IMG/VR virus record: IMGVR_UViG_3300036760_000101
Span: 1 to 54,244 of that record
Reading direction: 5' to 3' (one strand)
Source: a virus
Lineage: Duplodnaviria > Caudoviricetes
DNA length: 54,244 nt
Below, piece after piece: positions 35,221 to 54,244 of this stretch; position 1 is the first letter of the stretch; the number at the start of each line of letters is the position of its first letter. Position numbers and translations under genes: made by a program. The notes beneath the pieces were generated by a model. The model was not told the DNA's origin, made no database searches, and was given only the letters and a program-made list of their open reading frames with translations.

Positions 35221-35458
35221 TTTTCTTCTCCTTTACTTTTTGCATTTCTTTCTTTGTTCTTCTATGAATTATAGGGTCTTTTGCGATATGCTTTCTCCAT
35301 GAATCGCACTTATCCTTACGGCTACATTTCTTTTTACATATTGCCCTTTCCCTCCATGATTCTTCACGATAACAATATAGATATATCCTACCATTATCGC
35401 ATATCATTGCATTGTTAAAGGCTATACCAGTTTCTTCGTCAATTATTGGTTTTTCCAT
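35207..35458 (-). CDS. Hypothetical protein
   Basis: GGAAGG RBS; Cys-containing. Confidence 0.55.
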   Translation of the reverse strand: MEKPIIDEETGIAFNNAMICDNGRIYLYCYREESWRERAICKKKCSRKDKCDSWRKHIAKDPIIHRRTKKEMQKVKEKKNDIV

Positions 35459-37074
35459 TTTCCTTCCTTTTTTATATTATTAATACTAACTTCCCTTATT
35501 TTCCTATTTTTGTAAATAGTTCGATATATGCTTTATATTCTTCTATTTGTTCTTCTGTAAAATTATGTTCCTTTGCTATTTTTAGTCCTTCTCCTTTGGA
35601 CACTGTAATTGATAATAGAAACAAAGTACATCAAGCGCAAAGTTAATTGTAAATACTGTGTTCATACTACTGGAATACTATAAATAGATATATTGTTATT
35701 ATCACAATATACCTTAACATGCTTAACCCATAACCAAACATCTAAAGCAGACATGGGATTCTCCCAATATTCTAACTGCATTTTCCGGATAGTAAGATAT
35801 AGTTGTTTCATTTCATTTTACTTATCCCTAAAGGTTATAACTCTTTTACCATTTTTCTGGTATCTTACGCCGATAACGTGTTGACACAAACATTCCTTAT
35901 CGGGATTGATAACATTAAGACATACTGGACAGCAACAAAAAGCCTTTGTTTTTTTAACCATGATAATCTCCTTTCCTCCGATTTTAAATTGTTAATAGTT
36001 GAAATGTTCATGTCATTAAATATAGCAAGTCCCATGCCACCTTAAAAAAGCCATAACCCATTGATAAGATTCGATAATGGAAAATCTTTTAATGGCATAA
36101 TGACAGATAATGTTATTTTGGAAGACGAATCTTGTCAAATTCAATCTGGTCTGAATCATCAAATCTAATAATGAATAGATTACTACTTCCAGTAAAGGAT
36201 TGAATACAAGGCATTTAGACAATGGCATGTCAATAGCATATAGCATAGCATGTTATTAATAGTTAATAATCAGTTATGGTGAAGATAAACTATAAAAAAT
36301 AATAAGCGGCATAACATCCAATAAACCATAACCATATTTAATCCGTTTTTAAACCGTATCTAAACTGCATCCAAAAGATACAATGCGCTTCCAATAGTAT
36401 AGCGTATCGAAACACAATACTATAGAAGGTATGTTTAGGGGTAACAAGTGGTGACAGTGTTTCAATGGAATAATAGAAATGTAGATATATCAATATAGTG
36501 TGTCATTTTTGATACAGTTGAGTCGAGTCATATTAAGTATATTGATACGGTAAGGCTCACTATATAGAGGTCTACTACATGTATGATATACCCTACACAA
36601 TCACCACCCCATAACCGCACATGTGAATAAATAACACACCACTATCTCTTATAGCACCCATTAGCATCTCTTATAGAATAGACATCATGTATTACTTTAA
36701 GAGATAAGGGTAACTCATGGGATAATAACAATACTTTATGGTAGAGGAGGGGGTATTCCGCATTTCCAAAAGAGACCCCCTACCACCACAATCATCTCAA
36801 TCACATGTATAATAGGCATCAAAATAAATTGTTACACCATAACATTAAGTTAACAACGTAACCCCTTGATTTCATTAGACTTCTATAATAATACCTATAG
36901 AAAACAACCCCCCTATTCCCAAAATGGTATATCCTGGTAATGTAACCCATTGTCAAATTTGGATTTTCTATAGAAAATATAATAGGACTTTATAAGGCAA
37001 ATAAGTCCAATTCATTTTTTGATAGGTGTATGGAATATCATACAGTCATTTTCAAAAAAGCTGTACACATCCCG

Positions 37075-37157
37075 TAAGAGTATCTTCTTTAACTAATAAA
37101 TTATCTAATATATATTATTTAATATAATACATATTAAAGAGTAAGAAGATACTCTTA
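37075..37157. repeat. 15-bp perfect inverted repeat around an AT-rich core (origin-like module B)
   Basis: TAAGAGTATCTTCTT (37075-89) / AAGAAGATACTCTTA (37143-57). Confidence 0.9.
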
Positions 37158-37207
37158 TGTATTAGTATTATATATATAATATATATTATAGCGGAACAAT
37201 TTAGTGA

Positions 37208-37318
37208 TGTCCTCAATATTGTATACACCCAGGGTTCCTGTAACGTATTGATTCATGGTTCTTTCTTGAGTGGGGTGTCCTCAGTATTGTATACAGGTGT
37301 CCTCAATATTGTATCCAC
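37208..37318 (+). repeat. Three iteron-like 20-bp direct repeats
   Basis: TGTCCTCA(A/G)TATTGTAT(A/C)CA at 37208, 37276 and 37298. Confidence 0.85.
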
Positions 37319-37388
37319 ATGTTATATTCCATGTGCCAAACACGACATGTGCAGCCTACTTATGTCTTATAAAATATAACAATAAGTA

Positions 37389-37418
37389 TTGACATAATAC
37401 TACCCCATATGTTATACT
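37389..37418 (+). promoter_or_regulatory. Sigma70-type promoter starting the + arm
   Basis: TTGACA-N18-TATACT with extended TG. Confidence 0.75.
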
Positions 37419-37424
37419 AATAGA

Positions 37425-37589
37425 ATGGAAGAAGAAACATACATAGGTAGTGGTAGGGTAATGGTTACCGTTATTGACGATAAACTTACCATTATGACAG
37501 ATTGCCCTAAGTGTGGTAGGCTTCTTCAAAAGAAAGAATATATCGCAATCGTAACATGTTTTTGCGGATATGTTTGGCAGGAGTGGTAA
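37425..37589 (+). CDS. 54-aa zinc-ribbon protein, possibly leaderless
   Basis: Translated by hand: ...CPKCG...TCFCGYVW. Confidence 0.55.
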   Translation: MEEETYIGSGRVMVTVIDDKLTIMTDCPKCGRLLQKKEYIAIVTCFCGYVWQEW

Positions 37590-37590
37590 G

Positions 37591-37794
37591 ATGGAATGTA
37601 AGGAATGTGGTTTATCTCTGGAACTCGATAGTTACCAAAATACAGATGGTGATGTAATAGTCACTCTGTATTGTAACGACTGTGATAAGTATTTTCCTGT
37701 TAAGACCAAGGGGGAACTTAGGGAAATACTTAATGACGAAGAGTTGGCTAATTATCTTCCAGTTGATGTAATCTTTGAAATAAATAAATTTTAA
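37591..37794 (+). CDS. Zinc-ribbon protein
   Basis: CKEC...CNDC. Confidence 0.6.
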   Translation: MECKECGLSLELDSYQNTDGDVIVTLYCNDCDKYFPVKTKGELREILNDEELANYLPVDVIFEINKF

Positions 37795-42970: not shown

Positions 42971-43188
42971 TAAAAATAGAGAAATATTTTTATCATATTT
43001 GGCTGGAATTTTTGATGGTGAAGGTTCTATATTTAATTCTTAAAAAGAAACAGGCTGAATGTGTCTTGAAGCTTAGAAAAAATATAGATTTTTATAGCTT
43101 TAGGGGATTTAAGGCTATACCTAAAAATATATTAAAAGAAAGAGATAAGTTATTTCTATTATGCAAGAAATACAACAAGCAATCATAA
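42948..43188 (+). pseudogene. Degenerate LAGLIDADG homing endonuclease (internal deletion and frameshift)
   Basis: 42948-43043 reads MENQAIINKNREIFLSYLAGIFDGEGSIFNS*; the +1 frame 43030-43188 reads YLILKKKQAECVL...ERDKLFLLCKKYNKQS*. Confidence 0.75.
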
Positions 43189-44567
43189 ATTATTCAACCG
43201 ATGATTGTGCTACCCTTAAAAGATTTACGGAATCAGACGCAAGGGTAAGAGGAATAAGGGGAGTAATTGGTTCTGGGAAGTCCTCTGTTTGCGTGTGGGA
43301 ATTAATAAGACGTGGACTTGAGCAAGCTCCAAGCACACTTGACGGTATAAGAAAGACCAGGTGGTTTATTGTTAGAAATACCTATATGCAATTAAAGGAC
43401 TCCACCATAAGGACTGTACTTGAGTGGCTACCAGAGAAGTATTTTGGTGTATACCACAAGACAGACCATAACTATAATATAACAAAATTTAAAGATACCC
43501 ATATTGAGTTTTGTTTTAGGGCATTAGATAGACAAGAGGACATAAGAAATCTTCTTTCTGTTGAAATGACTGGATGTTGGATTAATGAAGCAAGGGAAGT
43601 ACCGAAGGGAATTTTAGATGCTGTTGATTCTCGAATACCACGATTTCCTTCTATGAAGGAAGGTGGTGCTACCTGGTGCGGTATGATTATGGACACCAAC
43701 TCACCAGACGAAGATTCATGGTGGTACAGTACATTTGAAAAGGGAAACATTCCGAAGGGTTGGGAACAATACGTTCAACCATCGGCATTTTCTCCAGATG
43801 CGGAAAATATAAAGAACTTACCACCCAAGTATTACGATAATATGTTAGCTGGTAAGGATGCTGATTTTATAAAAGTATATTTAGAAAATCAATATGGATT
43901 TGTTAAGGAAGGAGACCCTATATTCAATGCTACATGGGTAGACCATTTGCATATGGCGAAAGAAATATTAAACTTCCTTAAGGGATTTGATTTAATTATA
44001 GGAATGGACTTTGGATTAACACCTGCTGCTGCCATTACACAGTTTAGTCCAACTGGACATTTTAATATTCTTGATGAACTTGTATCGGAAGAAATGGGAG
44101 TTCAGAGATTTATAAGAAATAAAATGAAACCTCTTATTTTGAATAAATATAAAGATGCAAATATACTTGTAATAGGAGACCCTAATGCTGTTAATGTTAG
44201 AAGTCAAGTAGATGAGAAGACATGCTTTGAAGAACTAATGAACTCAGGATACCATGTTAGGCTTGCTCCAAGTAATGCACCAGCAGCAAGAATAGGTGCG
44301 ATACAATTATTTTTGAGTGAGTTGAAGGAATATGGTCTTCCATCACTACAAGTTTCACCAAATTGCAAGGTAATAAGGAAAGCCTTTAATGCTGGATATG
44401 TTAAAGACAAGAAAGGTGAACCTAAGAAAAATAAATATTCACATATAATGGAAGCTGTATCTTATGCAGCATTACATTTTCAAGAACTATTAAAAAGAAT
44501 GGGTGGGAGGTCTGGCACTGTTAGGGGAAAAAGTACATACCAAAGACCAACGGTGGCAGGATATTAA
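43161..44567 (+). CDS. terL: Terminase large subunit
   Basis: Walker A GVIGSGKS, Walker B WINEA, DTN coupling motif, nuclease GMDFG, SHIMEA. Confidence 0.93.
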   Translation: MQEIQQAIINYSTDDCATLKRFTESDARVRGIRGVIGSGKSSVCVWELIRRGLEQAPSTLDGIRKTRWFIVRNTYMQLKDSTIRTVLEWLPEKYFGVYHKTDHNYNITKFKDTHIEFCFRALDRQEDIRNLLSVEMTGCWINEAREVPKGILDAVDSRIPRFPSMKEGGATWCGMIMDTNSPDEDSWWYSTFEKGNIPKGWEQYVQPSAFSPDAENIKNLPPKYYDNMLAGKDADFIKVYLENQYGFVKEGDPIFNATWVDHLHMAKEILNFLKGFDLIIGMDFGLTPAAAITQFSPTGHFNILDELVSEEMGVQRFIRNKMKPLILNKYKDANILVIGDPNAVNVRSQVDEKTCFEELMNSGYHVRLAPSNAPAARIGAIQLFLSELKEYGLPSLQVSPNCKVIRKAFNAGYVKDKKGEPKKNKYSHIMEAVSYAALHFQELLKRMGGRSGTVRGKSTYQRPTVAGY

Positions 44568-44689
44568 TATGAAAAAAGACTACGGGAAATTTGATTTCAA
44601 CAAAAGGGACTGGAAGATAACAAAGAAAGAAAAATCATACTATGAAAATTTTGATGGTATTTTTAGAAAAGAAAAAGGGGTAAATAAGA

Positions 44690-45943
44690 ATGACAAGCCT
44701 AAAGAATAAAAGTGTACTGATTTATGATTTTGGTCTCTGTTCTGAGAACGCCGTTAGGCTTGCAAGGGATTTTGAATCAGTTTTTTATTACACACCTTGG
44801 GAAGCAGCGTTTCCCAAATCATCTTATTCTTTGATAGGAAAGAATTTTGAGGGAGTTACAAGGGTAGATAGTTTTGAGGATTATAAAAAAGAAGTAGACC
44901 TAATATGTTTCTTCGATACATATTGTTCAGATATAGTTAGGGACTTAAGGGAAGATGGTTATAGAGTATTCGGTGCTAGTGCATCAGAGGGACTTGAGAA
45001 TAATAGACATCAAGCCAAAAAGTACATGGAAGAGGTTGGTCTTCCAGTTCAACATTATGAATTAATTAAAGGATATGAAGCACTTGAGGAATATTTAAAG
45101 AAACATAATCATGTTGTTGTAAAGTTAAATATGTTTCGTGGAGATGCTGAAACATTCATGCACGATACATGGAATACTACCCAGGCTCAATATATGGGTG
45201 ACTTACTTATGAAGTTAGGAGCCAAGGCAGAAGAAATAGAATTTTTAGTAGAAGATGAAATTAAGGGAGTTGAACCTGGATATGATGGTTTTGTGGTAGA
45301 TGGACAATATTCAAATGTGTCAATGTATGGATATGAAAGAAAAGGAACTGGCTACATAGGAAAGGTTATGCCATATACGGAATTGCCTAAACCACTAAAA
45401 ATGGTTAATGATAAAATAGCTCCGTATTTTAAAAAATATGAGGGTAGAACATTTTTCTCAACAGAGGTTATGGTTAAGGAAGATGGAACTCCATATCTTA
45501 TTGACCCAACTGTTCGTTGTCCAATGCCATGTCCAACCGCTATAGCACTTGAGATGTATGAAAACTTTTCTGAATTTATTTGGGAAGCTGCTGATGGAAA
45601 TTTAATAGACCTGGAACCACTATACAAATATGGTGCTGGTATATGTGTTGATTCTGATTGGGCTGAGCATCATTGGACACATATAGATTTTGATTATAAA
45701 TATAGACAATGGATTAAATTTAGGATGGCTTGTAAGATAGGAAAGGAATATTATGCACTACCTGGATTTAATAGTGTCTGTAGTGTTATAGGATTAGGAA
45801 ATACCATTGATGAATGTATTGACAAAATAGAGGAAATAGTTCCTACTTTAAAAATAAGAGAATCAACCTATACAGTTTCTGGCTTGAGGGAAATATTGGA
45901 TGATGTTATTCCCGAAGGTCGTAAACATGGAATAGAGTTTTAG
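44690..45943 (+). CDS. PurD (GAR synthetase)-like ATP-grasp enzyme
   Basis: LENNR..AK..M..VGLP, VVKL, EDEIKGVE, YERK, IDPTVR. Confidence 0.7.
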   Translation: MTSLKNKSVLIYDFGLCSENAVRLARDFESVFYYTPWEAAFPKSSYSLIGKNFEGVTRVDSFEDYKKEVDLICFFDTYCSDIVRDLREDGYRVFGASASEGLENNRHQAKKYMEEVGLPVQHYELIKGYEALEEYLKKHNHVVVKLNMFRGDAETFMHDTWNTTQAQYMGDLLMKLGAKAEEIEFLVEDEIKGVEPGYDGFVVDGQYSNVSMYGYERKGTGYIGKVMPYTELPKPLKMVNDKIAPYFKKYEGRTFFSTEVMVKEDGTPYLIDPTVRCPMPCPTAIALEMYENFSEFIWEAADGNLIDLEPLYKYGAGICVDSDWAEHHWTHIDFDYKYRQWIKFRMACKIGKEYYALPGFNSVCSVIGLGNTIDECIDKIEEIVPTLKIRESTYTVSGLREILDDVIPEGRKHGIEF

Positions 45944-45949
45944 GAGGTT

Positions 45950-46153
45950 ATGGTGATAAATAACGAAGGATGGGTTTGTCCGAGATGCAACAAGGTAAAT
46001 GCTCCCTGGAAATCTCAATGCGATTGTGTTCCTACATATTATGGTATACCAATTACAGACAATCACTATGGTGGTAGTTATATTTACTGTCCTATATGCA
46101 AGCAATTATATAATACTATCGAACTTCATTTTTGTAAGGCAGAGGTAAATTAA
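45950..46153 (+). CDS. Small zinc-finger protein
   Basis: GWVCPRC..VNAP...CDC. Confidence 0.65.
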   Translation: MVINNEGWVCPRCNKVNAPWKSQCDCVPTYYGIPITDNHYGGSYIYCPICKQLYNTIELHFCKAEVN

Positions 46154-48079
46154 ATGAACTTCCATGAATTAGAAGAATTATCAAGACTTGAATTGGATAG
46201 TCTTGGAACTATACTTAAAAATGAATTTGAATATACCAAGATAGTAAGGCGTGATAAAGAAGTTGAATGGGTTCAGAATCTTAGGCAATATCGTGGTCAA
46301 TATGACCCAGAAATATTATTGAAGATTCACAAAAATGCTTCCCAGGTCTTTCCTAAATATACAAGATTTTGGTTAAAGAAATGGAAAGCTATATTACAGA
46401 ATATAGTCCTACCCGATAATGATAAGAATTGGGGAATATCACCAACCCCCAAGCCAATGGTTGATGTAAAGGATTTACAAAATATAATTGACCAATTAGA
46501 AAAATCTCAAGTTGAAGCTACTCCAGAAAATATAGAGAAAGCTGTATATGAATTTGCTAAAGCAAGATGTAAGAATATGGAACTTGAAATAGAAGACCAG
46601 TTAAGCGATATTAAATATGAAATTGTTATTAAGGACACTATTGATTCTGGCTTGAAGTTTGGTACTGGTATTGTAAAGGGTACAATGTCCAAGAAAGATA
46701 CGTCTAATGAAATCGTATCAGAAGGTGGAGTATTTAAACAAGTTACAAAAACTATACATGTTCCATATATTGAGAATGTTAGGATATGGGATTATTACCC
46801 TGATATGGGAACTACCGATAAGGAAACGGTAGAATTTGAATGGGAAAGAATGGTTCTCACAAAACACCAACTAAGGGAACTTGCCGATAAGGAAGGTTTC
46901 TTTGGTGACTTAATCCTTCAACATTTAAAGGAAAATCCCAAGGGGGATGCCAAATACGAGCAATGGGAAATTGACCTACAGGCTATGGACATAAATAAAT
47001 TTAAGGATATGAGAACTAATAAATATGAAGTTTATGTCAGGCATGGTTATCTTGATATTGAAGAAATGAAATATGCAGGCATTACAGTAGATGAAGAAAA
47101 TGTAGAATTTGAGGTAATGTCAGATGTTTGGATATTGGGAAGTAGGGTAATTAAAGTTGAGGAAAGTCCATTTCTGGAACCACTATATCATTTGTTTTAT
47201 TTTGAAAAGGACGAAACAAGTATTTTTGGTAGTGGACTTCCTAAAATAACAAGAGATAGTCAACAGACTCTTTGTTCTGCTATTAGAATGTCTCTCGATA
47301 ACGGTGCTATTTGTGCTGCCCCTCAAGCAGAGGTTAATATAGAACTTCTTGACCAAGGTGAAGACCCAGATGATTTTAGACCAAGAAGGATATGGAAAAG
47401 GTGGGGAAGGGGCATTGACGCACAGATTCCCGCAATAAGGGCTATAGAATTTAACTCACATATACCTGAATTGTTAAGTATAGTTGATAAGGCTGAAAAG
47501 ATAGCGGAAATGGAAATATCATTTTCTATGTATCCCCAGGAAGAAATGGAAACTCCAACAAGACAGAACTTGGCTGAATCTTCCATGAAGGCATCCTCTA
47601 AGGTTATAACCATTAAGGATGTTGTTAAGGCATTTGATGATTGCAATAAGAGCGTAATTAAGGCTCTTTATGATTGGAATATGGAATATAATAAGAAAGA
47701 ACATATTAAGGGTGACTTTAATGTGGAAGCTAAGGGCGTTGCTACGTTACTTTCTAAGGAAATTCTAACTCAACGTGTTGGATATTTCAGCCAGACCCTA
47801 TCTCCAGAGGAAAGAATGTATATTAAGACTGGTGAGTTCCTGAGACAGAAGGCTAAAATACTCGATTTGGATGTTGATGAATGGCTTAGAACTGACAAAG
47901 AAGTACAAGAGATGCAGGAAGCCAGTAGAGACGCTGAGATGGAAGCTATAATGAAAGCTAAAGCCAAGTCAGATGTAGCCTATACGGACTCTAAGGCTGC
48001 CCATATGAACGCTAAGGCTGAAAAAGCAGTCAAGGATTCAGACCTGGATGTAATTAATACCCTAAAGGGAAGCCAATAG
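46154..48079 (+). CDS. Portal protein
   Basis: 641 aa after terL; FGTGIVKG, WDYYPD, IFGSGLP, GDFNVEAKG. Confidence 0.85.
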   Translation: MNFHELEELSRLELDSLGTILKNEFEYTKIVRRDKEVEWVQNLRQYRGQYDPEILLKIHKNASQVFPKYTRFWLKKWKAILQNIVLPDNDKNWGISPTPKPMVDVKDLQNIIDQLEKSQVEATPENIEKAVYEFAKARCKNMELEIEDQLSDIKYEIVIKDTIDSGLKFGTGIVKGTMSKKDTSNEIVSEGGVFKQVTKTIHVPYIENVRIWDYYPDMGTTDKETVEFEWERMVLTKHQLRELADKEGFFGDLILQHLKENPKGDAKYEQWEIDLQAMDINKFKDMRTNKYEVYVRHGYLDIEEMKYAGITVDEENVEFEVMSDVWILGSRVIKVEESPFLEPLYHLFYFEKDETSIFGSGLPKITRDSQQTLCSAIRMSLDNGAICAAPQAEVNIELLDQGEDPDDFRPRRIWKRWGRGIDAQIPAIRAIEFNSHIPELLSIVDKAEKIAEMEISFSMYPQEEMETPTRQNLAESSMKASSKVITIKDVVKAFDDCNKSVIKALYDWNMEYNKKEHIKGDFNVEAKGVATLLSKEILTQRVGYFSQTLSPEERMYIKTGEFLRQKAKILDLDVDEWLRTDKEVQEMQEASRDAEMEAIMKAKAKSDVAYTDSKAAHMNAKAEKAVKDSDLDVINTLKGSQ

Positions 48080-48080
48080 A

Positions 48081-48287
48081 ATGTATGATATAAGCGAATT
48101 TAATGACCTTATAAGTAAGATTAAGTCATTAGATTATGATTATATACATTATTTTGCTAAATTATTTAAAATAAGATTGGAACATTTAAGGTCTGAGAAT
48201 GATACTGCCAATATGGATGAGGTTAAGATAAACCAAGGTGGAATAAGGGAATTATCCTATATTCTGAATTTACTTAAACGTGGGTAG
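48081..48287 (+). CDS. Small conserved protein after the portal
   Basis: NQGGIREL motif. Confidence 0.65.
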   Translation: MYDISEFNDLISKIKSLDYDYIHYFAKLFKIRLEHLRSENDTANMDEVKINQGGIRELSYILNLLKRG

Positions 48288-48317
48288 TTGACTTAAAACT
48301 ATTAAATGTGTTATAAT
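48288..48317 (+). promoter_or_regulatory. Sigma70-type promoter of the capsid operon
   Basis: TTGACT-N18-TATAAT with extended TG. Confidence 0.75.
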
Positions 48318-48340
48318 AGAGTATAGTAGAGGAATGGTCT

Positions 48341-48505
48341 ATGAATAAGGTAGAGAAGAAAGAAGTTGTATTTCAGGACGGTTTTTACGGTAAATTAATT
48401 CTCGGACTCGAAGACGGAAATTTTATCTATCTTAAAAAAGAAGAAACCATTAAGGACAAGAAAGTAATAAGACAAATACTCGAAAAAGTCCTTAAGGCAT
48501 TATAG
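48341..48505 (+). CDS. 54-aa DUF2292-like protein (not in ORF track)
   Basis: Translated by hand: FYGKLILGLEDGNFIYLKKEETIK; GAGG RBS. Confidence 0.6.
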   Translation: MNKVEKKEVVFQDGFYGKLILGLEDGNFIYLKKEETIKDKKVIRQILEKVLKAL

Positions 48506-48787
48506 TATAGCCTTATCCACCATGTGTGGAAAAAGATTAGCCAACCAGCAATGGTAGGTGGAAACTAAAAGGTTACGACAAACAAGGGGAAATCTACTGA
48601 GTACCCTGACAAATCGTAAGCCCTGGTAGATAGGGAAAGCGGTAGAAATGTCGCATAAAATATATAAAAAAGTGGTAGGTATCTGGATTAAGCCTTAGTC
48701 CATAACCCTACCCCAATAGTATCGAGAAAATCGAGCTATAGAAACGGCTACTTACAGCGAGCCTAAATTCTATAGCTTTTTTGTTTT
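48506..48787 (+). ncRNA. Candidate structured non-coding/leader RNA
   Basis: At least six hairpins, two GNRA loops, loop-loop complementarity, terminal 10-bp stem plus T-run. Confidence 0.55.
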
Positions 48788-48800
48788 AAGGAGACAAAAA

Positions 48801-49688
48801 ATGTCAACTAAAGAAAAAGAAGAAGAAAAAGTAGAAACATTTGAAGATGTTTTTGCTGAGGCAGCAGAAGAACCAGAAGGCAACAAAGCCGAAGCTGGTA
48901 AATCTGACGAACCCAAAAAAGAGGAACCTAAAGAGGTTGAGCCTAAGAAGGAAGGTGAGGTTGAGCCTAAGAAGGAAGACGAGCCCAAAGTTGAGGACTA
49001 TGAACAAAAATACAAGTCCCTGCAAGGCATGTTTAATTCTGAGGCTGAAAAGAGACAGGCTTTAGAGGAAGAAGTTAAAAAACTCAAAGAGCCTAAGCCC
49101 GAAGAAAAGAAACCAGAACCTAAACCCGAAGAAGACAAGCCCGACCCTGAGTTAGATGAGTATTTGAAAGAATACGATACAATCGCTAAAAACGAATCTA
49201 AGCTCAGAAAAAAGGAACTCGCAGCACTAAAGACGGAGATTAAAAAGGAAATGGCAGAAGAATTAGGAGTACCTTTTAGGAAAATAGAGGAACTTCTAAA
49301 TACAAGAGATGAGGAAGCTGAACTTACCCATGTTGCTTCTATCTTAGATGCACATGAGGATTATGGTATTGCTTTCGATAGACCACAAGTTGAAGAATGG
49401 ATTAGTAAACTATCTCCACTAAAAAAGAGAGAATACGGTGCGATTCTCGGAGAAGGTAGCACGGAAGAAGTTGTTGAGCTATTAACTGAATATAAAAAAG
49501 CCAATAACATTTCTTTGAAAAAAGAGGAAGAATCCGATACTACCAATCAAGAAGAAGACGAAGAAAAAGAAAAGAAATTAAAGTCTATGGAAGCTGTCAA
49601 ACATAAGAAGACTCCTGTTGGTGATACTGCTAATAAAAAAGAGGATTACGAAGGAGCCTTTGATGAGGCAGCCAAAAAGAAAGATTAA
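48801..49688 (+). CDS. Capsid scaffolding protein
   Basis: Highly E/K/P-rich; EQKYKSLQGMFN; directly upstream of the MCP. Confidence 0.8.
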   Translation: MSTKEKEEEKVETFEDVFAEAAEEPEGNKAEAGKSDEPKKEEPKEVEPKKEGEVEPKKEDEPKVEDYEQKYKSLQGMFNSEAEKRQALEEEVKKLKEPKPEEKKPEPKPEEDKPDPELDEYLKEYDTIAKNESKLRKKELAALKTEIKKEMAEELGVPFRKIEELLNTRDEEAELTHVASILDAHEDYGIAFDRPQVEEWISKLSPLKKREYGAILGEGSTEEVVELLTEYKKANNISLKKEEESDTTNQEEDEEKEKKLKSMEAVKHKKTPVGDTANKKEDYEGAFDEAAKKKD

Positions 49689-49700
49689 CGGAGGATAAAA

Positions 49701-50708
49701 ATGGCTTATTCTGCAACTCTATACGGAGATATTTCCCCAAGGACAGCAGCCTATGTGGTTGTTGAACTTTTAAAGAGGGGTATGCCTTATTTGGTTCTTG
49801 AGAAGTTCGGTCAGGCAAAAGAACTTCCTATGAATAAAACACAGGCTATGAAATTTAGGAGATACGAGCATCTTCCATTGGCAACTACGCCTTTGGTAGA
49901 GGGTGTAACTCCCACAAGTACAAAACTAAGATACACCGATATTACTGCAATTCTAAGGCAGTATGGTGCTATCGTTGAAATTACAGACATCGTGGCTGAT
50001 ACCCATGAAGACCCGATAATTAAGGAATCAACGGTAATTATGGGTGAGCAAGCTGCAAAGACAGTTGAGACAATTAGGTTTAATGTTGTCAAGGCTGGCA
50101 CTAACGTATTCTTTGCTAACAGTACAGTAAGGGGTAGTGTTAATGTTCCTGTTTCTCTTGCAAAACAGAGAGCAGTTACAAGGGCGTTAGCACGACAGAA
50201 CGCTGTAAAAATTACATCAGTTGTTAGAAGCACACCAAGTTTCAATACTGAGAACGTGCTTCCTTCCTATATTGCTATTGCACATACCGATATGGATAGT
50301 GATATTAGGAGTATGCCTGGGTTTATAGATGTAAAAGATTACGGTCAGCTTCCACCTTACGAAGCCGAAATTGGTGCAGTTGAAACTTGTAGGTATCTGA
50401 CTACTTCAATAGCTCCTTATTGGGCTGACCAGGGTGCAACCGCTAACGGTAGTGGTGTTCAGATGCTTTATACAACAAGCAATAGTGCTTGTGACATATA
50501 TCCAGTAATTTATCTTGCCAGGGATGCGTTTGCAATAGTAGCCCTTAAGGGTAAATATGCTGTAACACCTACAGTTATTAATCCTGTCCCAAGTAAGTCT
50601 GACCCATTAGGTCAGAGGGGAAGCATCGGATGGAAAACCATGCAGACCGCAGTTATTCTTAATGACGCTTGGATGGCTCGTTTGGAATGTGCAGTTACCA
50701 GTTTATAA
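49701..50708 (+). CDS. Major capsid protein, N4-gp56-like family
   Basis: YGDISPRTAAY, KFRRY, LVEGVTP, QYG, SDPLGQRGSIGWK, ILNDAWMARLE. Confidence 0.92.
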   Translation: MAYSATLYGDISPRTAAYVVVELLKRGMPYLVLEKFGQAKELPMNKTQAMKFRRYEHLPLATTPLVEGVTPTSTKLRYTDITAILRQYGAIVEITDIVADTHEDPIIKESTVIMGEQAAKTVETIRFNVVKAGTNVFFANSTVRGSVNVPVSLAKQRAVTRALARQNAVKITSVVRSTPSFNTENVLPSYIAIAHTDMDSDIRSMPGFIDVKDYGQLPPYEAEIGAVETCRYLTTSIAPYWADQGATANGSGVQMLYTTSNSACDIYPVIYLARDAFAIVALKGKYAVTPTVINPVPSKSDPLGQRGSIGWKTMQTAVILNDAWMARLECAVTSL

Positions 50709-50733
50709 TCGTAGGTAAATAAAATAGGAGGTA

Positions 50734-51012
50734 ATGGAAATGACTATGAATGAAACGATTGTTCAGACAGTAAGGGATGCAGCTAATCTCTTTTGTTCTG
50801 AGGCAGAAAGTTTTATAGATAATAGCACTAATGTAGCTCCAGGTGGACAGGTCAATATAGTTAGAATGAGCATCGCTGAGGAAGCGGTAGTGGAAACAGT
50901 TACGGTGGCTCTTTACGGTATTGGCGCTACAATTCTTGGTGCTGACCTTTATGCAAGGTTGGTAGCATTGAAGGCTACACTTGACGTATATCAGTCGGCT
51001 ATTGGTGGTTAA
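50734..51012 (+). CDS. Hypothetical protein
   Basis: AGGAGG RBS. Confidence 0.65.
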   Translation: MEMTMNETIVQTVRDAANLFCSEAESFIDNSTNVAPGGQVNIVRMSIAEEAVVETVTVALYGIGATILGADLYARLVALKATLDVYQSAIGG

Positions 51013-51039
51013 TTAAAGTAAATTAGGAGGTAAATAAAT

Positions 51040-51366
51040 ATGTTACAGGAACTTTTTGCGGTAGGAAAGATTGTAGGTACTGGTTCCGCTATTCATGTTC
51101 ATCTTGGTTTTATTCCAAGATACGTCAGACTCTTTAATGCGTCAGATGCTACAGTTCCGTTCCTGGAATGGTTTCAGGGTATGCCAGCAGGTTACGCACA
51201 TAAAACGCTAATCAGTACAAAAGATTTAAGTTCCTATGCAGCAAGTGGTTGTATTAGTGAATATGCTGGTACTGATGCACAGGGTGATGGTGCTGGTTTT
51301 ACACTTGGAACAGACAGTGACCTTAATGGCTCAACGGATGTAATATTCTATTTGGCATTGAGGTAA
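51040..51366 (+). CDS. Putative head decoration protein, paralog 1
   Basis: GTGSAIHVHLGFIPRYVRLFN. Confidence 0.7.
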   Translation: MLQELFAVGKIVGTGSAIHVHLGFIPRYVRLFNASDATVPFLEWFQGMPAGYAHKTLISTKDLSSYAASGCISEYAGTDAQGDGAGFTLGTDSDLNGSTDVIFYLALR

Positions 51367-51370
51367 AAAC

Positions 51371-51694
51371 ATGATACAGGAACTTTACTCTATAGGACAA
51401 GTTGTAGGTACTGCTGCTGCTATTAATGTTCATTGTGGATTTGTGCCAAGATATGTAAAGTTATTTAACGTTACAGATGCTACACTTCCACAAATGGAAT
51501 GGTTTGATAGTATGGCAGCAGCCCATTCACACAAAACTTATATTAGTACCAATGATTTTTCATCTTATGCTGCTACTGGAATTACTGCCTATGCTGGTAG
51601 TGATGCACAGGGAGACGGTGCTGGTTTTACAATCGGTACTGATACACAGATGAATGGCATCGGAGACGTAATTTTTTATTTAGCACTTAGGTAA
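51371..51694 (+). CDS. Putative head decoration protein, paralog 2
   Basis: Full-length similarity to 51040..51366. Confidence 0.7.
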   Translation: MIQELYSIGQVVGTAAAINVHCGFVPRYVKLFNVTDATLPQMEWFDSMAAAHSHKTYISTNDFSSYAATGITAYAGSDAQGDGAGFTIGTDTQMNGIGDVIFYLALR

Positions 51695-51701
51695 TTTTAA
51701 A

Positions 51702-51730
51702 AAGAGGGATGGAAACATCCCTCTTATTTT
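51702..51730 (+). terminator. Intrinsic terminator after the capsid operon (possibly bidirectional)
   Basis: AAGAGGGATG-GAAA-CATCCCTCTT then ATTTT; A-tract upstream. Confidence 0.8.
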
Positions 51731-51755
51731 CCATAGAAAAAATCAGGAGGATAAA

Positions 51756-52079
51756 ATGTTTGAAGTAGAAGAAGTAAAAAAAGAAGAAGGGATTAAAGAA
51801 CCAACAGAACAGGGTATGGTTCAGAAACCAAAAGAGGAAGATAAGAAAGTTAAAATCATAATCGAGGAACAAGAAGGGGACGAAAACTCTGGTGATGTGT
51901 TTGTAAGCGTAAATGGTTACGGTATGACAATCAAGAGAGGATTTCCTGTAGAGATTCCTGAGAGTTTTGTTGATGTGCTAAGAAAGGCAGTTATTACCAA
52001 AATGACACAGGATAAGGAAACTGACGAAATTAAGTATCGTGACGTTCCCCGATTCAATTTCAGAATAGTTAATGAGTAA
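51756..52079 (+). CDS. Conserved head-associated protein
   Basis: VFVSVNG...IKRG.PVEIPE..V.VL..A motif. Confidence 0.65.
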   Translation: MFEVEEVKKEEGIKEPTEQGMVQKPKEEDKKVKIIIEEQEGDENSGDVFVSVNGYGMTIKRGFPVEIPESFVDVLRKAVITKMTQDKETDEIKYRDVPRFNFRIVNE

Positions 52080-52082
52080 AAT

Positions 52083-53054
52083 ATGACAGTAGGGAAAATA
52101 ATAGAATTTTCAAGATTTCAACTTGATGATACCCAAAAACCCTATAAATGGTCAAGTGAAGAATTAGTTTTATATCATAATGATGCAGAAGCGGAAGCAT
52201 GTAGGCGTGGTAATTTAATACATGCGTATCCATCAGTCGTAACTATTACTGGAAACAGTAATATTTCATTTGCTACTACTAAGAAGATTACAAAATCAAC
52301 TGGTGGTTTTTTGTCTGCTGGTACTGTATCTGAATTAGAGACATTTGAAATAGATGACCAAATAACTATTACTGGAACTGTAAGTAATAACGGAGTTAAA
52401 ACTATATCCAATGTTACAGATACAGAGATTACGGTTATAGAATCATTAGTTGCCGAATCCAATAAAAGTGCTACAATAGAAGCTACCAGAACTGCCACAA
52501 GATTACCGCTTAGGGCTGGTGTCCATACATACAGATTGCATCCAAAAACATTAATGGTTTATAGGGCAAGACCAGAAAGTTTAACTTATCCATTAAGACA
52601 AAGAACACTTGAAGGATTAGACGCTGATATACTTGTTGTTGATACGGATTTAGATGATATGGTTGATTCTTTCTATTATGAATCATGGGAAGAATTAACT
52701 AATTATTTATTTTCTTATATAGAAGACTCTGGAAAAATAAGGATTGTGTCCCCACCTATTGTGGATGATATTCTATGGATGTTCATTTCAAGATTACCAA
52801 AAAAGACATATACAATTAATGATTTTGATTTAACTCCAGAGATTCCAGAACCTTACCATATGGGACTTGTAGATTGGATTTTACATCGAGCCTACATGAA
52901 ACAGGATGGTGAAACTCAGGATTTAACAAAGGCTAAGTCATTTGAGGCATCCTTTGAGTCAAGGTTCGGAAAGAGACCTTCCGCAATTCAGGAGATGAAT
53001 AGAAAACTTTATCCGAGAAATACAAGTTTCAGACCTCGTTCATTTGGATTTTAA
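52083..53054 (+). CDS. Head-tail adaptor protein with an inserted beta domain
   Basis: LDD....WSSEEL..Y.NDA..EACRR; PEIPEPYH.GLVDWILHRAY.KQD. Confidence 0.7.
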   Translation: MTVGKIIEFSRFQLDDTQKPYKWSSEELVLYHNDAEAEACRRGNLIHAYPSVVTITGNSNISFATTKKITKSTGGFLSAGTVSELETFEIDDQITITGTVSNNGVKTISNVTDTEITVIESLVAESNKSATIEATRTATRLPLRAGVHTYRLHPKTLMVYRARPESLTYPLRQRTLEGLDADILVVDTDLDDMVDSFYYESWEELTNYLFSYIEDSGKIRIVSPPIVDDILWMFISRLPKKTYTINDFDLTPEIPEPYHMGLVDWILHRAYMKQDGETQDLTKAKSFEASFESRFGKRPSAIQEMNRKLYPRNTSFRPRSFGF

Positions 53055-53112
53055 TATGAAAGCACATGAACCTGAAAGATTATATGGTGGATATTTTTCG
53101 GTATAATCAAAA

Positions 53113-53649
53113 ATGTTAAAACTTAAAATAACAGACGAAAATGGTGAAGTTATATATGAGGGATTTGCTGAACATCTATCGAATCTTGTAAGTGCTATTG
53201 TAGGATATGATGAAGTAAGTAAAGCATGGATGCCTATTGGGGTAACCGATAGGGGTCTCTCCAAAACTGCAAATTATATTTGGAATACTAATACGTTAGC
53301 ATGGGAATCATCAACTACTGGTGCGGGTGGTCTTGCTCAGGATGTTAATGTTAATAATTTTCCATCTGGAATAGCAATAAATAATCTTCCATCTGATTAT
53401 GCAAAGGAAGAAGGTAATTTAGATAGTATAAATAAAAATTTAATTCCATATAATACATTAATTGACGATTTTAGTTCTATAGATAAAACATATATAGGAA
53501 AGGCATTGTCAGGTTCTTCTGAATCTAATTCAGTGTGGCAAATTAAATGCATAGACGAAACTGGTGATTATATGAAAATTAAATTTGCAGATGGTGTTTC
53601 TACTTTTACAAAAAAATGGTCTGATAGAATAACATATTCTTATTTATAA
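53113..53649 (+). CDS. Putative virion protein
   Basis: C-terminal YIGKA.SGS....WQIK.I...ADG...F...W.DR..Y.Y domain. Confidence 0.6.
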   Translation: MLKLKITDENGEVIYEGFAEHLSNLVSAIVGYDEVSKAWMPIGVTDRGLSKTANYIWNTNTLAWESSTTGAGGLAQDVNVNNFPSGIAINNLPSDYAKEEGNLDSINKNLIPYNTLIDDFSSIDKTYIGKALSGSSESNSVWQIKCIDETGDYMKIKFADGVSTFTKKWSDRITYSYL

Positions 53650-53660
53650 AGGAGAAAAAC

Positions 53661-54244
53661 ATGGCTTGGGTAACTTTTACTTGTGCTGGTACAATTTTTG
53701 ATGCTACCCTTGCTACCAATGCAATAGCAAATGGGTGGACAAGATGTGAGACTGGTTATCAATGGATTAAACCAGCAAATTCAAATAATGTATTTTATGG
53801 AAGGATTACACAATTAGGTGCTATAAGGATTTATACTGAGGTTAATGCCACTGGTTACTTATATACAATTTATGAACCAGCAGTCAGGGAGTCCTATGAT
53901 ATGGGTTCACATACAGGAATAGGATTAGGATGGACAGGTTGGGGTAATCCTATTTATTGGGCTGGAAGAAGCGAAAATGATGTTGCAAGGGACTATACTT
54001 TCAATGGTTGGATAGGTAGTAATTCCATTTTTGGTAATGTAAGCCCTGACCCTTCAATTACAGGTGCATCTACATTTCCAATTTTTGCTTGTGTAACAAA
54101 AGGCTTTGATGGAATTGATCGTTTAGTTGCATTAGATATGCTTCCCAATGGTGGTGCATATCGTTGTAATTCACGTCTTATATATGCTACAGATTCACTT
54201 GCTTATTTTAATGGTTTACAAGTTGGTGGACTTGGAACGTGGGG
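53661..54244 (+). CDS. 5' part of a ~307-aa putative virion protein spanning the circular junction
   Basis: AAGGAG then ATG at 53661; open frame (MAWVTFTCAGTIFDATL...) continues in frame into ORF 149..595. Confidence 0.8.
   Translation, partial: MAWVTFTCAGTIFDATLATNAIANGWTRCETGYQWIKPANSNNVFYGRITQLGAIRIYTEVNATGYLYTIYEPAVRESYDMGSHTGIGLGWTGWGNPIYWAGRSENDVARDYTFNGWIGSNSIFGNVSPDPSITGASTFPIFACVTKGFDGIDRLVALDMLPNGGAYRCNSRLIYATDSLAYFNGLQVGGLGTW
53990..54244. repeat. Terminal direct repeat, copy 2
   Basis: Starts ggactatactttcaatgg and ends cttggaacgtgggg, like 1-255. Confidence 0.95.

Follow-up and report, generated by a model that had tools for sequence, protein, structure and literature searches.

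A putative structured mRNA leader with a kissing-loop fold and a terminator-like hairpin ahead of the scaffold-like and capsid genes of an uncultivated Caudoviricetes virus

The interval between the portal and capsid genes

The head-gene region of IMGVR_UViG_3300036760_000101, a record of an uncultivated Caudoviricetes virus, contains a structured region (48506-48790, + strand) between a 54-aa open reading frame (ORF) and a scaffold-like gene, and this region is the subject of the present analysis. The window referred to throughout is the entire stretch of DNA analysed, that is, all 54,244 nt of the record, whose estimated completeness is 72%. The series of head-region genes begins with the large terminase gene (43161-44567) and includes the portal gene (46154-48079; phrog_332), which is followed by a 68-aa ORF, a promoter and the 54-aa ORF (48341-48505, + strand; ATG preceded by GAGGAA), henceforth referred to as the small ORF. 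Downstream of the structured region, a Shine-Dalgarno sequence AAGGAG and the ATG of the scaffold-like gene, as read from the sequence, occupy 48788-48803 (+ strand); the scaffold-like gene itself (48801-49688, + strand) and the major capsid gene (49701-50708, + strand) come next, and a canonical intrinsic terminator (51702-51725, + strand; -17.1 kcal/mol) closes the head-gene unit. A first-pass annotation of the window had named the two genes scaffold and capsid. The capsid assignment stands, with matches to PF25209 and phrog_1357, whereas the scaffold is recognised by its position and its acidic, coiled composition and has no family match.

Homologues of the locus, given L numbers below, were collected via the capsid protein, which led to 34 loci in viral contigs, 31 in metagenome contigs (mostly the same contigs) and four in genome contigs. 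The scans of metagenome and genome contigs added only L204, a fragment identical to the window, and L233.

A sigma-70-type promoter with an extended -10 element (TGT) lies at 48288-48317 on the + strand (TTGACT-18-TATAAT). It has 11 of 12 consensus bases together with the TG and ranks first among 38 promoter-like sites in 43000-54244, in keeping with its earlier description as strong, and it is kept in L003, L004, L002, L201, L018, L033 and L233; the number of promoter-like sites in this interval is itself not above chance. Only three promoters of the same quality occur elsewhere in the window, two of them ahead of the leftward replication genes and one at 37389. Since the replication genes are driven by the same class of promoter, an extra device that delays the head genes is plausible. 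Four nucleotides past the -10 element there is a second -10-like hexamer, TATAGT (48322-48327, + strand), with TATAGC in L003 and TATACT in L004 at the same place, which is possibly a sigma-dependent pause element.

A covarying kissing-loop core and a recurrent 3' module

Folding of 48506-48790 as the + strand gave a minimum free energy (MFE) of -76.2 kcal/mol against -59.3 +/- 5.0 kcal/mol for shuffled sequences (z -3.37, with 1 of 200 shuffles as good), compared with z -1.62 for the minus strand. The + strand of the region holds no ORF of 30 aa or more, and neither a tRNA nor a tmRNA was found. All seven helices listed in the first-pass annotation lie where it had put them and are recovered in the MFE fold, with a single shift (AGGG/CCCT is formed by 48585-88 and 48604-07). 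The same annotation had treated the helices as one RNA of ~290 nt; the region is instead modular, with ~225 nt common to one homologue and the last ~75 nt found more widely. By piece, z runs from -0.86 over 48506-48572 (chance level, 36 of 200 shuffles as good) and -2.43 over 48568-48656 to -3.70 for a hairpin termed P5 and -4.10 for one termed P7. The hairpins TCCAC/GTGGA and ACCA-GCAA-TGGT at the 5' end (48516-48555, + strand) are present, yet they are specific to the window and are not supported as functional: L003 lacks the first 55 nt of the region, its alignment with the window running from 48568 onward.

The kissing-loop core (48568-48655) begins with hairpin 1 (48573-48619, + strand), in which helix P2 (48573-78/48614-19) is followed by a 6x6 internal loop, helix P3 (48585-88/48604-07) and a 15-nt loop. 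Hairpin 1 is kept in L003, where P2 shows an A-U to G-C change and the internal-loop sequences are identical. Hairpin 2 (48621-48635, + strand) has a CCCU/AGGG stem, which reads CCUC/GAGG in L003 (two pairs changed on both sides), and a 7-nt loop, GGUAGAU. As had been noticed at first pass, this loop (48625-31) is complementary over its full length to AUCUACU (48592-98) in the loop of hairpin 1: the resulting + strand loop-loop, or kissing, helix comprises 7 bp in the window, including one G-U, an extent reached by 0.56% of loop shuffles (p 0.0056; the corresponding p for L003 is 0.074). Its counterpart in L003 is a 6-bp helix, UCCUAC/GUGGGG, with two pairs changed on both sides and one changed on one side. 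The hairpin that follows, GCGGUA-GAAA-UGUCGC (48639-48654, + strand), contains two G-U pairs; in L003 a U-G pair becomes G-C and the loop differs. GNRA loops and G-U pairs had together been taken as signs of a + strand RNA, and the G-U pairs, present in the core and in the 3' module described below, do point to one; the GNRA loops are not conserved, GAAA being replaced by GGCG in L003.

With the loop-loop helix included, the comparison of window and L003 covers 44 pairs and 87 cells, 100% of which are paired; both partners have changed in seven pairs and one partner in three, and no pair is broken. Pairing is thus kept at every changed position of the stems and of the loop-loop helix. When partners were slid by 1-3 columns only 28-46% of cells paired, and 6 of 500 shuffles reached the observed values. 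Identical columns make up 39 of 53 paired but 29 of 34 unpaired positions, so that paired positions differ more, as in RNAs with functional loops and junctions. From these two sequences there is good evidence that selection has maintained the kissing-loop domain 48573-48654 as a genuine fold, one restricted to this lineage. Among the homologues recovered through the capsid protein, L003 (capsid 74% identical) is the only one with which blastn finds the RNA to be shared, and a blastn search with 48300-48810 of 50,697 phage records returned no match. Pattern scans of viral contigs for the core (42 stretches; at least 119 rows) gave, among the matches listed, only L003's contig as passing the script filter; a further 14-mer pattern scan, with at least one match from L003's contig, was judged too unspecific. 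A short contig in run X3 resembles L003's version of the sequence, and DNA contigs matching the sequence yielded no usable variants in the RNA.

The first-pass annotation had held that the RNA belongs to no known family and had suggested, among other roles, a ribozyme or a prohead-associated RNA (pRNA). The former view is upheld: at gathering thresholds Rfam 15 has no match in the whole window or in eight homologue loci, and a permissive scan of 48200-48900 returned only noise (12-16 bits, E 1.1-8.7; best 16.4 bits against a threshold of 49.9). By the standard of Rfam, then, the RNA appears to match no described family and the predicted kissing-loop fold is absent from the database, which does contain a pRNA model; a literature search on phage scaffold-leader RNA gave nothing specific. 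A trans- or self-acting RNA, whether a pRNA-like oligomer held by loop-loop pairing, a ribozyme or a host-defence decoy, would fit the covarying loops; the covariation in the core cannot separate pairing within a molecule from pairing between molecules, and such an RNA would run from a strong promoter to a terminator-like site. We nevertheless regard it as distinctly improbable. No ribozyme or pRNA model matches even at E<=10, and nothing supports either suggestion; a single nucleotide separates the two kissing hairpins, which belong to one chain; the region is positioned in cis, immediately ahead of a ribosome-binding site (RBS); and L004, L002 and L233, close relatives whose head genes are the same, do not have the core. 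phi29 pRNA (PMC4201828) has loop-loop complementarity between hairpins of a phage RNA, and to that extent the covarying complementarity of two hairpin loops here is alike. The leader differs from phi29 pRNA in its lack of an Rfam match, in its position in an mRNA leader and in having its hairpins adjacent in one chain; moreover, the replication genes recognised in the window (DnaB-like helicase, primase and SSB), in a record 72% complete, are not of the protein-primed type.

Three other interpretations were tried and rejected. A conserved peptide in the core is contradicted by a 1-nt gap in L003 that interrupts the 23-aa ORF at 48558-48629; AAAUCUACU...GUAGAU resembles a Cas12a repeat, which would have suggested a decoy, but its spacing is wrong and L003 has a different sequence there; and triplet repeats of the TRAP or HutP type are not conserved.

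Hairpin P5 (48674-48712, + strand; GGUAGG/CCUACC enclosing UGGAUUAA/UUAGUCCA) folds better than all 200 of its shuffles. At its position there is a GGUAGG/CCUAC hairpin in L004 and an unrelated one, GGGGGG/CCCCCC, in L003; the sequence is not conserved. The more widely shared 3' module begins beyond it with P6 (48716-48739, + strand; -7.0 kcal/mol, z -4.2), consisting of UCGA-GAAAA-UCGA (48722-34) extended by AUAGU/GCUAU with a bulged A. P7 (48735-48776, + strand; -15.4 kcal/mol), a terminator-like stem GCUAUAGAA/UUCUAUAGC with an inner hairpin GGCU/AGCC, follows, and directly after it comes a U-run, UUUUUUGUUUU (48777-48787, + strand), P7 thus sitting 11 nt before the scaffold RBS.

A covariance model of this module, built from four sequences, found 12 instances in 10 sources at E<=0.01, seven or eight of them before scaffold genes and four at a second site. 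The latter, in L004, L002, L231 and L197, lie after paired 107-aa genes and directly before the RBS of a head-region gene. Across 17 pairs, 98.3% of 173 cells are paired and 14 of the 17 pairs are changed on both sides; none of 500 shuffles scored as high, and slid partners paired in 33-48% of cells. The inner 4-bp stem of P6 covaries (UCGA/UCGA, CCGA/UCGG, UUGA/UCAA, UCGG/CCGA) around an A-rich pentaloop with conserved flanks, the loop being GAAAA in the window only and AAAAA or AACAA in the other 9 of 10 instances. In whole records the model matches once in the window and three times in L004 (one match is doubtful, inside a 129-aa ORF), and it has no instance in the records of three distant relatives without the small ORF. 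The alternative that P6-P7 is a sigma-70 promoter was rejected, since the final T is missing from its '-10' hexamers, which covary as stem partners.

Two side observations concern relatives that carry the module. In L201 (minus strand), GCCUGA...UCAGGC and GUGGAU...AUCCAC in the leader between small ORF and P6 interleave, by eye a possible H-type pseudoknot, of which RNAfold picks the second helix only. In L197 (minus strand), at ~1070-1470 of the reverse complement, a free-standing ORF starting MTDIDKAYIAGLFDGEGC lies between the paired 107-aa genes and the second-site P6-P7; its motif appears LAGLIDADG-like, which would make it a homing endonuclease.

That these helices are chance hairpins in an AT-rich spacer, with no function, is highly improbable. 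The first 67 nt do fold no better than shuffles, and the counts of promoter-like sites and, by a simple scan, of terminator-like sites in the region are at chance level. This explanation is contradicted by the covariation of the helices: none of the 10 pairs that changed relative to L003 is broken, and the 12 P6-P7 instances covary, in a region whose fold as a whole departs from its shuffles.

A candidate attenuator or antitermination leader

Intrinsic terminators are identified by a stable, G-C-closed hairpin with an immediate U-run, and P7 has both; a simple terminator scan missed it because its loop is longer than 8 nt. Across its instances P7 is a stem of 9-10 bp, usually with an inner hairpin, of -15 to -24 kcal/mol (z -4.1 to -7.3). 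The U-run abuts it at seven of eight distinct scaffold-site instances (window, L003, L004, L002, L201, L018 and L033), the exception being L233, where a short P7 is set apart from the U-run; at the second site it abuts the stem in none of three distinct types (L004b, L002b/L231 and L197). P6, in turn, is predicted to compete with P7. Folded alone, extended P6 is a 9-bp hairpin with a bulged A in the window and five others (-4.1 to -7.6 kcal/mol, z -2.6 to -4.2), and because its 3' strand, GCUAU, is also the first five bases of P7, the two are mutually exclusive. Two changes in this common strand have counterparts on each side: an A inserted in L004 is accompanied by an inserted U in the flank and by a U in the 3' arm of P7, and a U-to-C change in L002b/L231 by A-to-G in each partner. 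By its overlap with P7, P6 is a candidate antiterminator.

The region is best explained as the structured 5' leader of the scaffold-capsid operon mRNA rather than as a free-standing RNA gene. We give about an even chance to this leader being an attenuator or antitermination leader with P7 as its terminator, which among the roles suggested at first pass is the best fit because the region is situated downstream of a conserved promoter and upstream of the scaffold RBS and has at its 3' end a stable hairpin abutting a U-run. Under this proposal, polymerase from the promoter at 48288-48317 would mostly stop at P7. Read-through to the scaffold and capsid genes would occur when some factor, perhaps the co-encoded DUF2292-like protein, stabilises P6 or, by an alternative route, when the polymerase has been made terminator-resistant, and head-protein synthesis would thereby be timed or dosed. 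The core (48573-48654) may stabilise the leader or act on polymerase in the manner of the put RNA of phage HK022.

The same hairpins could instead form an element of mRNA stability, processing or translation, with P7 a protective or nuclease-recognised hairpin rather than a terminator, the U-run an AU-rich translation enhancer, and high, lasting scaffold and capsid output the result. The leader of T7 gene 10 is of this kind, with a hairpin and a U-rich stretch. We consider this possible, though on balance somewhat unlikely. It would account for P6-P7 standing directly before the RBS of another head-region gene, with no U-run, in L004, L002/L231 and L197, and for the separated U-run of L233; the Shine-Dalgarno sequence is never sequestered in the predicted folds, and head genes need maximal, not reduced, expression. 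However, a translation enhancer has no need of a U-run abutting a G-C-closed stem, as it does at nearly every scaffold-site instance, and the mutually exclusive extension of P6, with the joint changes of both its partners, is left unexplained.

Several observations weigh against the attenuator or antitermination reading. No RNA sequencing runs carrying the window sequence are listed. A terminator ahead of the most abundantly needed proteins is costly unless relieved, and no RNA polymerase, sigma factor or antiterminator gene (nor an integrase gene) was recognised among 41 PHROG-scanned and 49 Pfam-scanned ORFs, in a record that is incomplete and in which many ORFs are family-less. Because L004, L002 and L201 have P7 and lack the core, the core is dispensable for the role of P7, and the covariation of the core comes from two sequences only. 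The second-site P6-P7 copies, being without a U-run, imply that the module has a use other than termination. The P6-P7 alignments are fitted to the model, which inflates the counts somewhat, although the changes are plain in the raw sequences; the outer pairs of P6 are kept in only 4-8 of 9 distinct rows and are absent in L004b, with one of the misses an alignment artefact in L004a. Finally, the A-rich P6 loop is complementary to the U-run and the reverse strand is weakly scored by the model, both of which are expected of an ordinary A-tract/U-tract terminator.

A protein partner for the leader, if it has one, might be encoded by the small ORF. Orthologues occur in L003, L004, L002, L201 and L018; close relatives of the 54-aa protein number only three in 5.8 billion clusters, the third (P0003) with 70% identity, and the small-ORF alignment, used as a scan query, led to no contig other than L003's. 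A profile built from seven orthologues extends to 214 small proteins, mostly of 40-65 aa. DUF2292 (PF10055) is detected at E<=0.001 in 7 of the top 40 profile matches, of which 3 pass the cut-off, and the L004 orthologue scores 18.2 bits against it (cut-off 22). The window protein itself has no Pfam match even at E<=10, and a six-frame search of the record for DUF2292 found none, so that the label DUF2292-like, as originally given, holds remotely, through profile relatives, and not for the window protein directly. The protein is rich in lysine and glutamate and has one arginine. Its AlphaFold model (pLDDT 66.8, low confidence) has three strands and one helix; Foldseek with this model against the PDB found nothing at E<=0.001, and a search of the ESM Atlas gave no usable match. 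Neither the Pfam search at E<=10 nor Foldseek against the PDB revealed an RNA-binding fold or family, and literature searches on DUF2292/YezD returned nothing on function. Each of the six leaders that has the small ORF or P6 has the other as well, and L233, L033 and three whole records of distant relatives have neither. This co-occurrence, consistent with the small protein reading the RNA, is weak evidence of a functional link because the two are physically adjacent. In L004 and L002 the only canonical start codon of the small ORF is at or before the -10 element, which means that the promoter cannot express it from that start; the ORF there may be translated only from read-through transcripts, or may be decaying.

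The distribution of the small ORF bears on the history of the leader. In seventeen distinct relatives (24 loci) without it, a sigma-70-like promoter precedes the scaffold ATG by 30-60 nt, and in distant relatives the gap before the scaffold gene is ~50 nt and contains a promoter of this kind. L233 (capsid 76% identical) and L033 (65%) have a TTGACA-17-TG(T/C)TATAAT promoter, a leader of 70-95 nt and, in place of the small ORF and further hairpins, only a P7-like hairpin, whereas in L003, L004, L002, L201 and L018 the promoter is accompanied by a small ORF belonging to the same family, and the leader measures 106-232 nt. In relatives that lack the small ORF the promoter immediately precedes the scaffold gene, so that the small ORF and the additional hairpins represent insertions, placed between that ancestral promoter and the scaffold RBS. 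Two further features of these relatives may be mentioned. In L033 (4001-5438) the capsid match spans 1.4 kb and covers query residues 90-335 only, which suggests an insertion (intron or intein-like) in the capsid gene, and L233, a 4.9-kb contig with a bacterial-type promoter and Shine-Dalgarno sequence, is filed in an archaeal (Methanosarcinales) bin, probably through a binning error.

The promoter, small ORF and terminator could also be an inserted moron-like unit, with the folded region as its 3' untranslated region and the head genes served from the 37389 promoter by a terminator-resistant polymerase. The promoter-gene-terminator layout, the presence of a second strong promoter 11 kb upstream and the patchiness of the cassette among relatives of 63-79% capsid identity (found in L018 at 64%, missing from L233 at 76%) fit such a unit. 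We think it improbable, since L033 and L233 have the promoter and P7 without the small ORF, and all distant relatives have the promoter alone, so that promoter and P7 belong to the scaffold operon and not to an insert; the small ORFs of L004 and L002, starting inside or before the promoter, could moreover not be expressed by it from their canonical starts. A more elaborate form of the attenuator or antitermination reading is that small ORF and RNA are a portable antitermination cassette inserted in the head-operon leader, in which the DUF2292-like protein would bind the bulged A-loop hairpin (P6), at second sites too, and switch on scaffold and capsid synthesis, with the core acting on polymerase in cis as put does. 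This is doubtful; if true, it would give the DUF2292 family its first function.

The timing and dosing of head proteins in phages without a known late regulator are mostly obscure, a few model phages apart. The present locus is a compact case that lends itself to testing, with a host-type promoter, a terminator-like hairpin opposed by a conserved hairpin, a linked small protein from a family of unassigned function and a covarying kissing loop. A real switch would extend the control of transcription read-through by a new RNA motif and perhaps by a new protein partner; failing that, the module would still be a leader motif that recurs in a sediment phage group and is missed by annotation pipelines.

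Related regulatory systems and neighbouring features

Late control in lambda uses the PR' promoter and the promoter-proximal terminator tR'. The present locus is alike in that a strong constitutive sigma-70 promoter is followed by an intrinsic-terminator-like hairpin before structural genes, with a -10-like hexamer in the first transcribed bases (48322-27 here). In contrast to lambda, no Q-like gene was recognised in the same ORF scans, with the same limits; the promoter lies inside the structural cluster, after terminase and portal, and not before all late genes; and the leader RNA appears to be under structural selection, for which Q control has no need. Sigma-dependent pausing and the Q antiterminator are described in PMC9378689.

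The put RNA of HK022 is ~70 nt long, has two stem-loops, lies downstream of early promoters (putR ~270 nt from the start) and suppresses terminators without a protein (PMC9378689). The likeness is one of layout only: two adjacent stem-loops at 48573-48635 (63 nt) lie ~250 nt past the predicted start and upstream of P7. Unpaired bases are conserved in both. The core differs in having no sequence or family match to put (by Rfam only) and in its loop-loop helix where put forms a V-shaped pair with a triplex; relatives here also keep the terminator-like hairpin without the core, whose binding to polymerase is hypothetical.

In antitermination of the BglG/LicT/SacY type, a hairpin overlapping a terminator (ribonucleic antiterminator, RAT) is bound by a protein with a co-antiterminator (CAT) RNA-binding domain. 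The leader is similar in that a weak hairpin, bulged and conserved in sequence, shares bases with the 5' arm of a terminator, and in that a ~55-aa protein is a possible stabiliser. It is dissimilar in that four small-ORF orthologues have no match to CAT_RBD at E<=10, the hairpin sequence is unrelated and the overlap is only 5 nt. The boxB hairpin of the lambda nut site has a GNRA-like pentaloop and is paired with an arginine-rich protein, N. Like boxB, P6 is a short stem capped by an A-rich pentaloop (GAAAA in the window), and it too precedes a terminator within a phage leader; its stem has 4 bp, however, its loop outside the window is not GNRA-like, and neither an arginine-rich protein nor a boxA was identified. 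The N protein and the nut site also feature in PMC9378689.

Elsewhere in the window, the gap between terminase and portal (44690-45943) holds a gene unusual for that place, a 417-aa ORF with a weak ATP-grasp match (GARS_A, E 0.0054). Tandem paralogues of 108 and 107 aa (51040-51366 and 51371-51694), both ending ...FYLALR, lie between the capsid gene and the 51702 terminator; they have only a weak tail-fibre PHROG match and may be decoration proteins. The boundary between leftward replication genes and rightward late genes is marked by ~2 kb (35300-37400) with no ORF above 83 aa, a candidate origin or control region. Within it, at 37208-37320, three ~18-nt direct repeats, GTCCTCA[A/G]TATTGTAT[A/C]CA, stand directly upstream of the strong promoter at 37389-37418 and look operator- or iteron-like, and two small zinc-ribbon-like ORFs (37425-37589 and 37570-37794) follow downstream of that promoter.

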